A DNA stretch of 64,000 nucleotides from Escherichia phage vB_EcoM_JE01: the sequence record PQ471460.1. One strand, written 5' to 3'. Shown here piece after piece: positions 48,862 through 55,477 of the stretch (within the stretch, counting starts at the first letter, position 1; each line of letters starts with the position of its first letter). The notes under the pieces were generated by a model that had not been told where the DNA came from, did not search any database, and saw nothing but the letters and a program-made list of their open reading frames with translations. Made by a program: the position numbers and the translations under genes.

Positions 48862-49227
48862 ATGTATATTGGTAGAAAATATGAACTTGTTCCAAGACTT
48901 ATTGATACATTTATTAATTATCGCCCGCGTTCTAATTCATCAATAGTTAAAATTATTCAAGAAAATGGCGGATGGTTTGAAGTTAAAGAAGCTTTCTTTG
49001 CTGATGGATTTAGAGTAATAAAACACATTGAATGCGCTAATGGAAAGCATTTTTACTTCAACGTCTGTGAAGACGAATTTCATTGTTTCCGCGAGTATAA
49101 AGAACTGACTTCTGAAGAAGATGAAGTCGAAGACAAGATTTCTGGCGTAACAAAAATTCACTGCATTGTAGACGAAAACAATGTAGATGAAATCATTGAA
49201 CTTTTGCGAAAAACTTTCAAAAAGTAG
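48862..49227 (+). CDS. Hypothetical protein (121 aa)
   Basis: ORF with GAGGAAAA RBS. Confidence 0.45.
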   Translation: MYIGRKYELVPRLIDTFINYRPRSNSSIVKIIQENGGWFEVKEAFFADGFRVIKHIECANGKHFYFNVCEDEFHCFREYKELTSEEDEVEDKISGVTKIHCIVDENNVDEIIELLRKTFKK

Positions 49228-49256
49228 TTTACAGAAGGGTAGTAGTGTGATACTAT
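49227..49256 (+). promoter_or_regulatory. T4-type early promoter (IR-flanked -10)
   Basis: GTTTAC 49227-49232, TACTAT 49251-49256; imperfect 9-bp inverted repeat GGGTAGTAG/CTATTACCC at 49237-49245 and 49253-49261. Confidence 0.55.
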
Positions 49257-49281
49257 TACCCTATCAACTAAGGAGAATAAA

Positions 49282-49524
49282 ATGAGATTACAACGTCAGA
49301 GCATCAAAGATTCAGAAGTTAAAGGTAAATGGTATTTTAATATCATCGGTAAAGATTCTGAACTTGTTGAAAAAGCTGAACATCTTTTACGTGACATGGG
49401 GTGGGAAGATGAATGTGATGGATGCCCTCTTTATGAAGATGGAGAAAGCGCAGGATTCTGGATTTACCATTCTGACGTTGATCAGTTTAAAGCTGATTGG
49501 AAAATTGTGAAAAAGTCTATTTGA
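49282..49524 (+). CDS. Hypothetical protein (80 aa)
   Basis: ORF. Confidence 0.4.
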   Translation: MRLQRQSIKDSEVKGKWYFNIIGKDSELVEKAEHLLRDMGWEDECDGCPLYEDGESAGFWIYHSDVDQFKADWKIVKKSI

Positions 49525-49534
49525 GGAAAATAAT

Positions 49535-49777
49535 ATGATTTTTGTATTTGAATTTATGAATGATGAATTCGATTATGCAATTTTTAACGCATTGCATAAT
49601 CCTGATTTAAATGAATTTAATGAAATGTTTTCTGACGCTTTGAGTATGTCAGAAGAATACTGCGGAGAATGTCAACGTGTTTGTGTGACAGTCTTTGAAA
49701 ACAAAGAAAAGACATATGAAGAATTATTCTTTGACGCTAATAAAGCCACTGAATGGTTTATTGAAAGGGGATTTTGA
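49535..49777 (+). CDS. Hypothetical protein (80 aa)
   Basis: ORF. Confidence 0.4.
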   Translation: MIFVFEFMNDEFDYAIFNALHNPDLNEFNEMFSDALSMSEEYCGECQRVCVTVFENKEKTYEELFFDANKATEWFIERGF

Positions 49778-50365
<588 letters not shown>

Positions 50366-50385
50366 AATAACACGTGGCGGAAAAT

Positions 50386-50733
50386 ATGAGCTTTAATTAT
50401 TACCCTATTCTATTAGAAAAAGACGCGAAACAACCAAAATGGCAGGGTCCTCAGTTTATTAAAGGTGTCTATCAATTAGTAGTTCCTAAAGACAAAATTT
50501 ATAGCAGTTGTTTCACTGAATCCGCTTGCAGTATTTTTGGTAATAGTTCTCCGTATTGGAATTTTGATATAAAGCTGGATAGAAATATCGATATTTGGTT
50601 GAAAGCTATGGATATTGGCAATATCACGTTTGATGAGAATAATTATCATATTATTGGTCGTTTTTCCAAACGTGGTAAAGAATTATATTTCATGCCTGAA
50701 ATTGAAAGAAAATTTGACGCTAAACCGTATTGA
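50386..50733 (+). CDS. Hypothetical protein (115 aa) inserted between frd and td
   Basis: ATG 50386; ORF-track frame 50374..50733 uses a GTG start. Confidence 0.45.
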   Translation: MSFNYYPILLEKDAKQPKWQGPQFIKGVYQLVVPKDKIYSSCFTESACSIFGNSSPYWNFDIKLDRNIDIWLKAMDIGNITFDENNYHIIGRFSKRGKELYFMPEIERKFDAKPY

Positions 50734-50778
50734 TTATTTAGCTTCATAAAATGTATTATAATTTATATAAGGTACTAA

Positions 50779-51327
50779 ATGAAACAATACCAAGATTTAA
50801 TTAAAGACATTTTTGAAAATGGCTATGAAACCGATGACCGAACAGGCACAGGAACAATTGCTTTGTTCGGTACTAAATTACGCTGGGATTTAACTAAAGG
50901 TTTTCCTGCGGTAACAACTAAGAAGCTCGCCTGGAAAGCTTGCATTGCTGAGCTAATATGGTTTTTATCGGGAAGCACAAATGTCAATGATTTACGATTA
51001 ATTCAGCATGATTCATTAATTCAAGGCAAAACAGTCTGGGATGAAAATTACGAAAATCAAGCAAAAGATTTAGGATACCATAGCGGTGAACTTGGTCCAA
51101 TTTATGGAAAACAGTGGCGTGATTTTGGTGGTGTAGACCAAATTGTAGAAGTTATTGATCGTATTAAAAAACTACCAAATGATAGGCGTCAAATTGTTTC
51201 TGCGTGGAATCCAGCTGAACTTAAATATATGGCATTACCGCCTTGTCATATGTTCTATCAGTTTAATGTGCGTAATGGCTATTTGGATTTGCAGTGGTAT
51301 CAAAGAAGTGTAGATGTTTTCTTGGGT
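50779..51327 (+). CDS. td: Thymidylate synthase, exon 1 (183 codons)
   Basis: TS N-terminal domain; reading frame hits the in-frame TAA that is the first triplet of the group I intron. Confidence 0.9.
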
Positions 51328-52343
51328 TAATTGAGGCCTGAGTATAAGGTGACTTATACTTGTAATCTATCTAAACGGGGAAACTCTCTAGTAGACAATC
51401 CCGTGCTAAATTGTAGGACCACCCTTTAATAAATACCTTTATATTTAAAGAGGTATTTATGAAAAGTGGAATTTATCAGATTAAAAATACTTTAAACAAT
51501 AAAGTATATGTAGGAAGTGCTAAAGATTTTGAAAAGAGATGGAAGAGGCATTTTAAAGACTTAGAAAAAGGATGCCATTCTTCTATAAAACTTCAAAGGT
51601 CTTTTAACAAACACGGTAATGTGTTTGAATGCTCTATTTTGGAAGAAATTCCATATGAGAAAGATTTGATTATTGAACGAGAAAATTTTTGGATTAAAGA
51701 GCTTAATTCTAAAATTAATGGATATAATATTGCTGATGCAACGTTTGGTGATACATATTCTGTGCATCCATTAAAAGAAGAAATTATTAAGAAACGTTCT
51801 GAAACTGTTAAAGCTAAGATGCTTAAGCTTGGAACTGATGGTCGGAAAGCTCTTTACGGTAAACCCGGAAGTAAAAACGGACGATGGAATCCAGAAAAAC
51901 ACAAATTTTGTAAGTGCGGTGTTCGTATACAAACTTCTGCTTATACTTGTAGTAAATGCAGAAATCGTTCAGGTGAAAATAATTCATTCTTTAATCATAA
52001 GCATTCAGACATAACTAAATCTAAAATATCAGAAAAGATGAAAGGTAAAAAGCCTAGTAATATTAAAAAGATTTCATGTGATGGGGTTATTTTTGAATGT
52101 GCAGCTGACGCAGCTAGACATTTTGAAATTTCATCCGGATTAGTTACTTACCGTGTAAAATCTGATAAGTGGAATTGGTTCTACATAAATGCCTAACGAC
52201 TATCCCTTTAGGGAGTAGGGTCAAGTGACTCGAAACGATAGACAACTTGCTTTAACAAGTTGGAGATATAGTCTGCTCTGTATGGTGACATGCAGCTGGA
52301 TATAATTCCGGGATAAGATTAACGACCTTATCTGAACATAATG
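51328..52343 (+). mobile_element. td group I self-splicing intron (1016 nt) carrying the I-TevI homing endonuclease gene
   Basis: Begins TAATTGAGGCCTGAGTATAAGGTGACTTATAC..., ends ...GGGATAAGATTAACGACCTTATCTGAACATAATG; TS frame resumes at 52344; length and sequence match the T4 td intron as I recall it. Confidence 0.9.
51459..52196 (+). CDS. I-TevI GIY-YIG homing endonuclease (245 aa), intron-encoded
   Basis: GIY-YIG motif GIYQIKN...KVYVGSA; 245 aa inside the td intron. Confidence 0.9.
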   Translation: MKSGIYQIKNTLNNKVYVGSAKDFEKRWKRHFKDLEKGCHSSIKLQRSFNKHGNVFECSILEEIPYEKDLIIERENFWIKELNSKINGYNIADATFGDTYSVHPLKEEIIKKRSETVKAKMLKLGTDGRKALYGKPGSKNGRWNPEKHKFCKCGVRIQTSAYTCSKCRNRSGENNSFFNHKHSDITKSKISEKMKGKKPSNIKKISCDGVIFECAADAARHFEISSGLVTYRVKSDKWNWFYINA

Positions 52344-52655
52344 CTTCCATTCAACATTGCATCATATGCTGCATTAGTTCATATTGTAGCTAAGATGTGT
52401 AATCTTATTCCAGGAGATTTGATATTTTCTGGTGGTAATACTCATATCTATATGAATCACGTAGAACAATGTAAAGAAATTTTGCGTCGTGAACCTAAAG
52501 AGCTCTGTGAACTGGTAATAGGCGGATTGCCTTATAAATTCCGCTATCTTTCTACTAAAGAACAATTGGAATACATTCTTAAACTCAGGCCTAAAGATTT
52601 CGTTCTCAAAGATTATCAGTCCCATGGTGTCTTGAAAGGAAAAATGGCGGTGTAA
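52344..52655 (+). CDS. td: Thymidylate synthase, exon 2 (103 codons)
   Basis: LPFNIASYAALVHIVAKMCNL... continues TS C-terminal domain; exon1+exon2 = 286 aa. Confidence 0.9.
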   Translation, partial: LPFNIASYAALVHIVAKMCNLIPGDLIFSGGNTHIYMNHVEQCKEILRREPKELCELVIGGLPYKFRYLSTKEQLEYILKLRPKDFVLKDYQSHGVLKGKMAV

Positions 52656-52678
52656 TTTTAATTTAATTGAGAGGATAT

Positions 52679-52942
52679 ATGATTTTACGATTTAAGGATA
52701 CTTCTGGTGTCGTTCTTTTTACACTTCCTAACCCAAGTGAGTTAGAAGTTCCAGGACCAAATCAGCCTATTATCATTTATGGCAAAAAATATTATACTCA
52801 TAAAATGACCCGTGAGTATTTTGATAATAAAATTTCCACAGTTAAAACTTCTTCTGACTGTTATTATGATATTACTGTTTTAACGGAAAAACAATATGAC
52901 GAATTATCACCGCACGGGCCGTCTATGCCAGGTAGTGAATAA
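52679..52942 (+). CDS. Hypothetical protein (87 aa)
   Basis: ATG 52679 with GAGGA RBS. Confidence 0.4.
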
Positions 52943-53222
52943 ATATAAATCCGACTTTGATGTTAATATTCACCGTGGTACATTTTGGGGAAATTACGTC
53001 GGTAAAGATGCTGGCAGCCGGGAGGCTGCCATTGAATTATTCAAAAAAGATTTTATACGTCGAATTAAATCCGGAGAAATAACTAAAGCACATTTAGAGC
53101 CTTTACGTGGAATGAGGCTAGGATGCACATGTAAACCAAAGCCGTGTCATGGTGATATAATAGCTCATATAGTTAACCGATTGTTTAAAGACGATTTTCA
53201 AGTTGAGGACTTATGCAATTAA
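52896..53222 (+). CDS. Hypothetical protein (108 aa)
   Basis: ORF overlapping neighbours. Confidence 0.4.
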
Positions 53223-55477
53223 TTAATGTTATCAAAAGTAGTGGTGTTTCTCAGAGCTTTGACCCGCAAAAAATTATTAAAGTTTTATCTTGGGCAGCTG
53301 AAGGAACATCTGTAGATCCTTATGAATTATATGAAAATATTAAATCATATCTCCGTGATGGAATGACAACTGATGACATTCAGACTATTGTCATTAAGGC
53401 TGCTGCGAATTCTATTTCAGTTGAAGAGCCTGATTATCAATACGTAGCCGCTCGCTGTTTAATGTTTGCTCTTCGTAAGCATGTTTACGGACAATATGAA
53501 CCACGTTCATTTATTGACCATATTTCTTACTGTGTAAATGAAGGTAAATATGACCCTGAACTGCTGTCAAAATATTCAGCAGAAGAAATTACATTTTTAG
53601 AATCAAAAATTAAGCACGAGCGGGATATGGAATTTACTTATTCCGGGGCGATGCAATTAAAAGAAAAATATCTCGTTAAAGATAAAACCACTGGTCAAAT
53701 TTATGAAACTCCGCAGTTTGCATTTATGACTATTGGAATGGCATTGCATCAAGATGAACCCGTTGATAGACTAAAACACGTTATTCGTTTTTATGAAGCA
53801 GTATCTACTCGACAGATTTCACTGCCAACTCCTATTATGGCTGGTTGTCGTACTCCAACTCGGCAGTTTAGTTCATGCGTTGTTATTGAGGCAGGTGATT
53901 CGCTGAAGTCTATCAATAAGGCTTCCGCTTCAATTGTTGAGTATATTTCTAAACGAGCTGGAATTGGCATTAACGTTGGTATGATTCGTGCCGAAGGTTC
54001 TAAGATTGGCACAGGTGAAGTGCGTCATACTGGTGTTATTCCTTTTTGGAAACATTTTCAGACTGCTGTTAAATCATGCTCACAGGGTGGAATTCGTGGC
54101 GGCGCTGCTACTGCTTATTATCCTATTTGGCATTTGGAAGTTGAAAATCTTCTCGTTTTGAAAAATAACAAAGGCGTAGAAGAAAACCGTATTCGTCATA
54201 TGGATTATGGCGTTCAACTGAATGACCTAATGATGGAACGATTCGGAAAGAACGACTACATTACCTTGTTCAGTCCGCATGAAATGGGTGGCGAGCTTTA
54301 TTATTCTTATTTTAAAGACCAAGACCGTTTCCGTGAATTATATGAAGCCGCAGAAAAAGACCCTAATATTCGTAAAAAGCGTATTAAAGCCCGTGAACTG
54401 TTTGAATTGCTCATGACTGAACGATCAGGAACAGCAAGGATTTATGTACAGTTCATTGATAATACGAATAACTATACTCCATTTATTCGTGAAAAGGCAC
54501 CTATTCGTCAGAGTAACTTGTGTTGTGAAATTGCTATTCCAACAAATGATGTGAATAGTCCTGATGCTGAAATTGGATTGTGTACCCTTAGCGCATTCGT
54601 GTTGGATAACTTCGATTGGCAAGACCAAGATAAAATTAATGAATTAGCAGAAGTTCAAGTTCGCGCTCTTGATAATCTTTTGGATTACCAAGGATATCCA
54701 GTTCCTGAAGCAGAAAAAGCTAAAAAGCGTCGAAATCTTGGTGTAGGTGTTACTAACTATGCAGCTTGGCTGGCAAGTAACTTTGCTTCTTATGAAGATG
54801 CTAACGATTTAACACATGAACTATTTGAGAGATTACAGTATGGACTCATTAAAGCATCCATTAAGCTCGCCAAAGAAAAAGGACCTTGCGAATATTATTC
54901 AGACACTCGTTGGTCTCGAGGCGAATTACCTATCGACTGGTACAATAAAAAGATTGACCAAATCGCAGCTCCAAAATACGTTTGTGACTGGTCGTCGCTG
55001 CGGGAAGACCTTAAGCTCTTTGGCATCCGTAATAGCACATTATCAGCACTTATGCCATGTGAGTCATCTTCCCAAGTTTCTAACAGTACAAACGGTATCG
55101 AGCCTCCACGTGGACCAGTCTCTGTTAAAGAATCAAAAGAGGGTTCCTTTAATCAAGTCGTGCCCAATATTGAGCATAACATAGACCTCTATGATTATAC
55201 GTGGAAATTAGCTAAGAAAGGCAATAAACCTTATCTTACGCAGGTAGCTATTATGCTGAAATGGGTATGTCAATCAGCTTCAGCGAATACATATTATGAC
55301 CCGCAGATTTTTCCAAAAGGAAAGGTTCCAATGTCTGTAATGATTGATGACCTTTTGTACTTTTGGTATTTTGGCGGAAAAAATTTCTATTATCATAATA
55401 CCCGCGACGGTTCTGGTACTGATGATTATGAAATAGAAACTCCAAAAGCTGAAGATTGTTCATCCTGTAAATTATGA
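53213..55477 (+). CDS. nrdA: Aerobic ribonucleotide reductase large subunit NrdA (754 aa)
   Basis: ATP-cone N-terminus and class I RNR catalytic core; 754 aa. Confidence 0.9.
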   Translation: MQLINVIKSSGVSQSFDPQKIIKVLSWAAEGTSVDPYELYENIKSYLRDGMTTDDIQTIVIKAAANSISVEEPDYQYVAARCLMFALRKHVYGQYEPRSFIDHISYCVNEGKYDPELLSKYSAEEITFLESKIKHERDMEFTYSGAMQLKEKYLVKDKTTGQIYETPQFAFMTIGMALHQDEPVDRLKHVIRFYEAVSTRQISLPTPIMAGCRTPTRQFSSCVVIEAGDSLKSINKASASIVEYISKRAGIGINVGMIRAEGSKIGTGEVRHTGVIPFWKHFQTAVKSCSQGGIRGGAATAYYPIWHLEVENLLVLKNNKGVEENRIRHMDYGVQLNDLMMERFGKNDYITLFSPHEMGGELYYSYFKDQDRFRELYEAAEKDPNIRKKRIKARELFELLMTERSGTARIYVQFIDNTNNYTPFIREKAPIRQSNLCCEIAIPTNDVNSPDAEIGLCTLSAFVLDNFDWQDQDKINELAEVQVRALDNLLDYQGYPVPEAEKAKKRRNLGVGVTNYAAWLASNFASYEDANDLTHELFERLQYGLIKASIKLAKEKGPCEYYSDTRWSRGELPIDWYNKKIDQIAAPKYVCDWSSLREDLKLFGIRNSTLSALMPCESSSQVSNSTNGIEPPRGPVSVKESKEGSFNQVVPNIEHNIDLYDYTWKLAKKGNKPYLTQVAIMLKWVCQSASANTYYDPQIFPKGKVPMSVMIDDLLYFWYFGGKNFYYHNTRDGSGTDDYEIETPKAEDCSSCKL

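Follow-up and report, generated by a model that had tools for sequence, protein, structure and literature searches.

Why does one T4-like phage carry a gene at a junction where T4 itself has none, and which of the two arrangements is the older? The question is raised by Escherichia phage vB_EcoM_JE01 (sequence record PQ471460.1), of which a stretch of 64,000 nucleotides, referred to here as the window, was analyzed. In T4, the dihydrofolate reductase (DHFR) gene frd and the thymidylate synthase (TS) gene td adjoin directly, as the first-pass annotation of the window had stated; the frd stop and td start codons overlap as ATGA (...TATAAATGAAACAATACC...) and no gene lies between them. In the window, the two genes are separated by an open reading frame (ORF) of 115 amino acids, which that annotation took for a lineage-specific accessory gene, a view that the same ORF at the T4 junction would have undone; T4 was inspected and lacks it. 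That small ORFs vary among the T-even phages is well known. The comparisons described below uphold the ORF as a genuine gene but not as a lineage-specific one, since it is the majority state in Tequatrovirus and occupies the same locus in about ten genera. To judge from these comparisons, the lineage-specific event is the loss of the gene by T4, not its gain by this phage.

The ORF is a near-identical (98%) member of a family already catalogued as td.1, RB32ORF229c or PHROG 1928. The record of phage T2H (AY262132.2) names the gene td.1 (protein ABI48932.1), the name used hereafter, and its product differs from that of vB_EcoM_JE01 at two residues only, S2N and M103T (98% identity over 115 residues); the position between frd and td, the spacer, and the 9-bp repeats on either side are likewise shared. 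RB14 and RB51 carry the label RB32ORF229c, a name that also serves for RB32, and the RB14 product is likewise 98% identical to that of this phage. PHROG 1928, labelled function unknown, matches residues 4–111 over profile positions 2–125/126 (E=2.7e-35), while a family hidden Markov model (HMM) built here matches the ORF with E=2.3e-34. This is the sole match of the model within the window, and a paralogue of td.1, sought with it across the rest of the 64 kb, was not found. The family motifs Q16-x-K18-W19, G27-x-Y29, G78-N79, G91-R92-F93-x-K95-x-G97, and F102-x-P104 are all present in the window protein, aligning as QPKW, GVY, GN, GRFSKRG, and FMP, and the gene lies directly 3' of frd and 5' of td. 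As a finding the ORF carries little weight, since T4-like genomes by the hundred already list it as a hypothetical protein; literature searches by td.1, RB32ORF229c, phrog_1928, and locus returned no paper on the gene.

The window belongs to Tequatrovirus (the closest record in the collection is 95.8% identical over 22 kb), and within this genus td.1 is found in ~360 of the 514 records with the frd 3' end in common. A 413-bp segment searched with blastn matched 364 phage records, 304 of them at 95–99% identity, and the td.1 protein searched with tblastn matched 579, divided between 362 at 90% identity or above and 217 below 60%. The synteny comparison of the frd-td junction that the first-pass annotation had called for places a td.1-like gene at the same position across about ten genera. 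Every divergent homologue that was fetched lies directly 3' of frd, usually overlapping its stop codon, and 5' of td; these loci are those of Entb_45 and PEi20 (both Kanagawavirus), Mexia (unclassified Klebsiella phage), Cronus (Roskildevirus), F48 (Marfavirus), Merlin (Moonvirus), UTK0003 (Gelderlandvirus), CHI14 (Winklervirus), EcS1 (Kagamiyamavirus), and KMB38 (Mosigvirus). The order frd, td.1-like gene, in some cases a paralogue, then td holds for nine loci plus Mosigvirus, and also for T2H, FL33, RB3, and FelixPlatter.

Beyond these genomes, HMMER run exhaustively against 1.84 billion cluster representatives matched 45 clusters, nearly all of 95–140 amino acids, where a word-indexed homology search had given 3 and then 9 proteins only. 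Those matches that bear a name belong to T4-like phages infecting Pectobacterium, Yersinia, Salmonella, Kosakonia, and Erwinia, all Enterobacterales. Five very long matches, each hitting profile positions ~19–62 several times, were dropped as repeat or composition artefacts; the four that were scanned (P0032, P0040, P0043, P0044) are beta-propeller, PKD, or type IX secretion system-secreted proteins. On these results, the td.1 family is restricted to phages.

In Kanagawa-, Moon-, Gelderland-, Winkler-, Kagamiyama-, and Marfavirus, the td.1-like gene is followed, ahead of td, by a second ORF of ~115–125 amino acids (e.g., PEi20 ORF-252). It is homologous to td.1 (hhalign 99.5%, E=1.7e-22), PHROG 1928 covers both, and the motifs L-L-x-x-D-x-x-QKKW, HG[IL]Y, and GRFxKxG are common to the two, although the second ORF has some 20 additional residues (PTIxxYKxNPxxY) after the QKxW motif and, unlike td.1, is present neither in Tequatrovirus nor in this window. 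In Erwinia phage Cronus, a paralogue of 144 amino acids lies 5' rather than 3' of the td.1-like copy (hhalign 99.1%). Because paralogues and synteny recur across the genera, the ancestral locus probably held one or two copies between frd and td, of which Tequatrovirus keeps one. As a separate observation, frd of Enterobacter phage Entb_45 (2002–2516 of its locus) is annotated as a split pseudogene, with an intact td.1-like gene and paralogue just 3' of it; the split might reflect an error in sequencing or else a true loss of DHFR in a phage that kept td.1.

The means by which T4 would have lost the gene is indicated by a 9-bp direct repeat, TAAATGAAA, which spans the frd stop codon on one side of td.1 and the td start codon on the other (Table 1). 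Simulated removal of one copy together with the interval reproduces the T4 frd/td junction at 71 of 71 positions, and the repeat is kept in T2H, FL33, and FelixPlatter. A short repeat at both edges is the textbook sign of a deletion between such repeats. The chance of a 9-bp identity exactly at both edges of the indel is ~8e-6 per position pair; weighing against this reading, repeats of nine bases are common in the AT-rich window, which holds 299 pairs 300–600 bp apart. It is the repeat at both edges together with the outgroup synteny that argues for the T4 overlap being a derived deletion and not the ancestral layout. Recent horizontal acquisition of td.1 was considered and rejected, its GC content (0.32) and its GC content at third codon positions (GC3, 0.267) being equal to those of its neighbours.

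Among the matches listed, the T4-type junction in one piece occurs in T4 isolates, T4T, RB55, RB59, vB_EcoM_112, HY03, SG1, and F1, and subtraction from the 514 records puts the T4-type at ~15–35. In a further ~130–147 records, the junction is occupied by an unrelated ORF of 68 amino acids (PHROG 9550, labelled function unknown), as in Escherichia phage PM108 (locus 2599–2805, equivalent to window 50366–50778), where it overlaps the frd stop with its start (ATGA) and the td start with its stop (TAATG). The Tequatrovirus frd-td junction thus has three alleles: td.1, the 68-amino-acid ORF, and nothing.

Polymorphism of this kind, with a short direct repeat at its edges, might also be expected of a mobile element, and td.1 could be read as a free-standing homing endonuclease, or the remnant of one, inserted between frd and td with TAAATGAAA duplicated as its target site. 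The orthologue is indeed labelled "putative homing endonuclease" in the BASEL phages FelixPlatter (MZ501065; locus 1501–1848) and TadeuszReichstein (MZ501106), and the region is rich in homing elements, with I-TevI in the td intron and a homing endonuclease adjoining td in EcS1. Against this, the protein shows no nuclease catalytic domain or motif (GIY-YIG, HNH, LAGLIDADG, His-Cys, PD-(D/E)xK) and no nuclease fold; its distribution is not sporadic, as it holds an orthologous position in about ten genera under strongly purifying selection; and the Tequatrovirus polymorphism is explained by microhomology deletion instead. The homing endonuclease reading is rejected on these three grounds as hardly credible, and the label in the deposited genomes is unsupported and should not spread further.

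The history that we favor is therefore one of ancestry and loss. The ancestor shared by the enterobacterial T4-like phages (Tevenvirinae and relatives) already had td.1 directly 3' of frd, often as tandem paralogues. In T4 and a few close relatives it was then removed by a precise deletion of 417 bp between the two TAAATGAAA repeats, which joined the frd stop to the td start as ATGA and took out the promoter-like spacer before td. We regard this account of the identity and evolutionary history of td.1 as very probable, a confidence that does not extend to any guess at its biochemistry.

The ORF is real, its 115-codon frame being borne out by homologues and by purifying selection. The reading frame on the forward strand can be opened at a GTG to give 119 amino acids (50374..50733), within which the ATG at 50386 gives 115; homologues all begin at the equivalent of this ATG (MNFNYY.../MSFNYY...), so it is the likely start of translation. 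Just upstream, the string GGCGGAAA(A)TATG is kept in every copy examined (T2H, FL33, RB3, FelixPlatter, and Mosigvirus KMB38). In RB3 and KMB38, the reading frame of frd is changed by two added A's ahead of its stop, DHFR is 10 codons longer, and frd there overlaps the td.1 start by 11 nt (1915–1975 of the RB3 locus and 1480–1540 of that of KMB38).

Selection on the protein is strong. The ratio of nonsynonymous to synonymous substitution rates (dN/dS) of td.1 is 0.00–0.05 over all pairs, with dS up to about 1, and when the window is compared with FL33, FelixPlatter, and KMB38 it is 0.04–0.05 at dS 0.24–0.80, against 0.06–0.26 for frd and 0.05–0.11 for td in the same comparisons. Conservation in hundreds of genomes with low dN/dS makes td.1 far more than a chance ORF, and it is a genuine, strongly constrained protein-coding gene.

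The surrounding signals bear on how the gene might be expressed. A scan of 49200–51000 gave no terminator-like sites, so none separates frd from td.1, and td.1 is presumably read from frd transcripts for this reason. The spacer between td.1 and td, 45 nt at 16% GC, contains a promoter-like element built on TTTAGCTTCA (Table 1), which in a pattern scan looks like a MotA-dependent middle promoter but for one mismatch, a match to consensus only; a sigma-70-like match at 50730–50759 also came from scanning. The element is kept in the Tequatrovirus td.1-type copies, and it is missing from the spacer of Mosigvirus KMB38 and, through the deletion, from T4. Canonical MotA-box middle promoters and the TATAAATA late promoter were sought in 49000–53500 and none was found, the relaxed match in the spacer being the only one. 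The TTTAGCTTCA element is accordingly put forward as a candidate middle promoter for td. In the proposed scheme, td.1 would share an early/middle polycistronic RNA with frd and be translated from a weak Shine-Dalgarno sequence of its own; as T4 grows in its absence, the gene would be dispensable in laboratory hosts.

Table 1. Coordinates of td.1 and of the elements around it in the window.
Feature	Position	Strand	Remarks
frd (dihydrofolate reductase), upstream neighbour	49781..50365	+	Pfam DHFR_1, E=1.8e-18
Left 9-bp direct repeat TAAATGAAA	50359..50367	+	Spans frd stop codon
Shine-Dalgarno-like GGCGGA	50376..50381	+	4–9 nt 5' of td.1 ATG; read from sequence, putative function
td.1 coding sequence	50386..50733	+	115 amino acids plus stop; PHROG 1928 member; orphan, mostly-beta predicted fold
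Promoter-like element	50737..50764	+	MotA-box-like TTTAGCTTCA, then TAATTT at N12 or TATAAT at N10
Right 9-bp direct repeat TAAATGAAA	50776..50784	+	Spans td start codon; 417 bp from left copy
td exon 1 (thymidylate synthase), downstream neighbour	50779..51327	+	Pfam Thymidylat_synt, E=4.4e-64
td group I intron	51328–52343	–	1016 nt from splice-site strings; exon 2 follows
I-TevI ORF within td intron	51459..52196	–	From ORF list

The td intron was delimited by the strings TTGGGT/TAATTGAGGCC and CATAATG/CT (slashes mark the junctions), which correspond to the T4 td splice sites; at gathering threshold, Rfam gave no match over 49200–53300, the intron included. This phage has both td.1 and the intron with I-TevI; T2H carries td.1 but no intron, and T4 the intron but no td.1, so that td.1 and the intron assort independently. 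Other small genes accompany td.1 in its operon. An ORF of 80 amino acids (PHROG 3183, labelled function unknown) lies at 49535–49777 (+) between frd.1 and frd; it is found in FL33, RB3, PM108, and KMB38 and is a second small gene missing from T4, which has only ~70 nt there. On the 3' side of td, homologues of nrdA.2 and nrdA.1 (52667–52942 and 52896–53222, both +; Pfam DUF5496, E=1.5e-58, and DUF4326, E=1.3e-21) are further conserved uncharacterised genes of the same nucleotide-metabolism operon.

What the td.1 protein does is a matter on which its sequence and predicted structure offer hints. The earlier remark that it has no recognisable motifs stands against the libraries searched: no match was obtained in Pfam, NCBIfam, PADLOC, or the sequences of the Protein Data Bank (PDB), and PHROG 1928 is the sole family match. 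A 43-sequence profile searched against the PDB, and each family member searched against Pfam, returned noise only (E>0.01). An AlphaFold2 model from 43 sequences reached a mean predicted local distance difference test score (pLDDT) of 90.1 and a predicted template modelling score (pTM) of 0.83, compared with pLDDT 80 from 10 sequences, and consists of eight strands (residues 6–12, 27–34, 38–40, 48–50, 62–64, 80–82, 86–96, and 99–104) and one helix (68–76). The family has no detectable fold or sequence relatives outside itself. The protein is of 13.7 kDa and mildly basic (isoelectric point 8.5), with 20 aromatic residues, and the side chains of Q16, W19, Y29, R92, F93, K95, and F102 are invariant or nearly so.

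The isoelectric point and the conserved W, K, R, F, and Y residues hint indirectly at nucleic-acid binding. The known group for comparison comprises the oligonucleotide/oligosaccharide-binding (OB)-fold or S1-type domains that bind single-stranded nucleic acids (RPA/Teb1, the RecO N-domain, baculovirus LEF-3, HIN, and ribosomal S1). As a tentative, low-confidence guess, td.1 might be a non-enzymatic binder of single-stranded nucleic acid, acting through an OB-like surface to which the conserved QKKW loop and the GRFxKxG hairpin would contribute. It does not qualify as a bona fide OB-fold member. Such a binding protein would be an accessory factor of early infection and not an enzyme, working, for example, on mRNA or replication DNA near the enzymes that synthesize deoxynucleoside triphosphates (dNTPs).

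The constancy of the locus suggests another role, as an accessory to the thymidylate cycle or the dNTP-synthetase complex: td.1 would bind proteins, namely DHFR and/or TS, and tune channeling, stability, or assembly. Its position between frd and td is invariant over about ten genera, with start and stop codons usually overlapping, which implies translational coupling; moreover, it is constrained as strongly as DHFR and TS, and no catalytic motif was found in Pfam scans. The synteny of T4-like phages is, however, largely inherited, and T4, the phage in which the dNTP-synthetase complex was defined, makes working DHFR and TS and grows without td.1. In addition, ~147 records hold the unrelated 68-amino-acid ORF in its place, and in Entb_45 the gene and its paralogue are intact beside the split frd. 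We consider this role decidedly unlikely.

A further possibility is that td.1 is a host-takeover or counter-defence factor apart from folate metabolism, needed only where the host has a certain defence or is in a certain physiological state. It would be dispensable in laboratory hosts, as are many small early genes of T4-type phages that are not essential; the junction is polymorphic for presence, absence, and replacement within Tequatrovirus; the family is phage-only (45 clusters among the 1.84 billion representatives); and tandem duplication with divergence of paralogues is common in arms-race genes. Yet a dN/dS of ~0.05 and protein identity of 96–99% over hundreds of isolates are unlike typical fast-diversifying counter-defence genes, literature searches found no link between the frd-td locus and a defence phenotype, and PADLOC, whose library covers defence and not anti-defence, gave 0 families at E≤1. 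A takeover or counter-defence role is rather unlikely.

Returning to the ancestral gene deleted from T4, td.1 resembles the ORFs of T4-type "hyperplastic" sites in being small, without known function, present, absent, or replaced among close relatives, and dispensable in T4. It differs from them in being unusually old, with the same locus in about ten genera and a dN/dS as low as that of the flanking core enzymes. It is not, in other words, a fast-evolving "ORFan": it is old, many genera have it in duplicate, and the constraint on it equals that on the adjacent enzymes. A bolder and quite improbable proposal is that td.1 and its paralogue form an unrecognised fold family serving the phage thymidylate cycle, as a small nucleic-acid- or enzyme-binding regulator that would link DHFR/TS expression or the dNTP machinery to replicating DNA; if true, this fold family would have been overlooked for decades because the model phage T4 deleted td.1. 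T4 is a poor reference for the frd-td locus, its textbook overlap being derived, and its lack of td.1 is why this well-conserved orphan-fold protein has been passed over.
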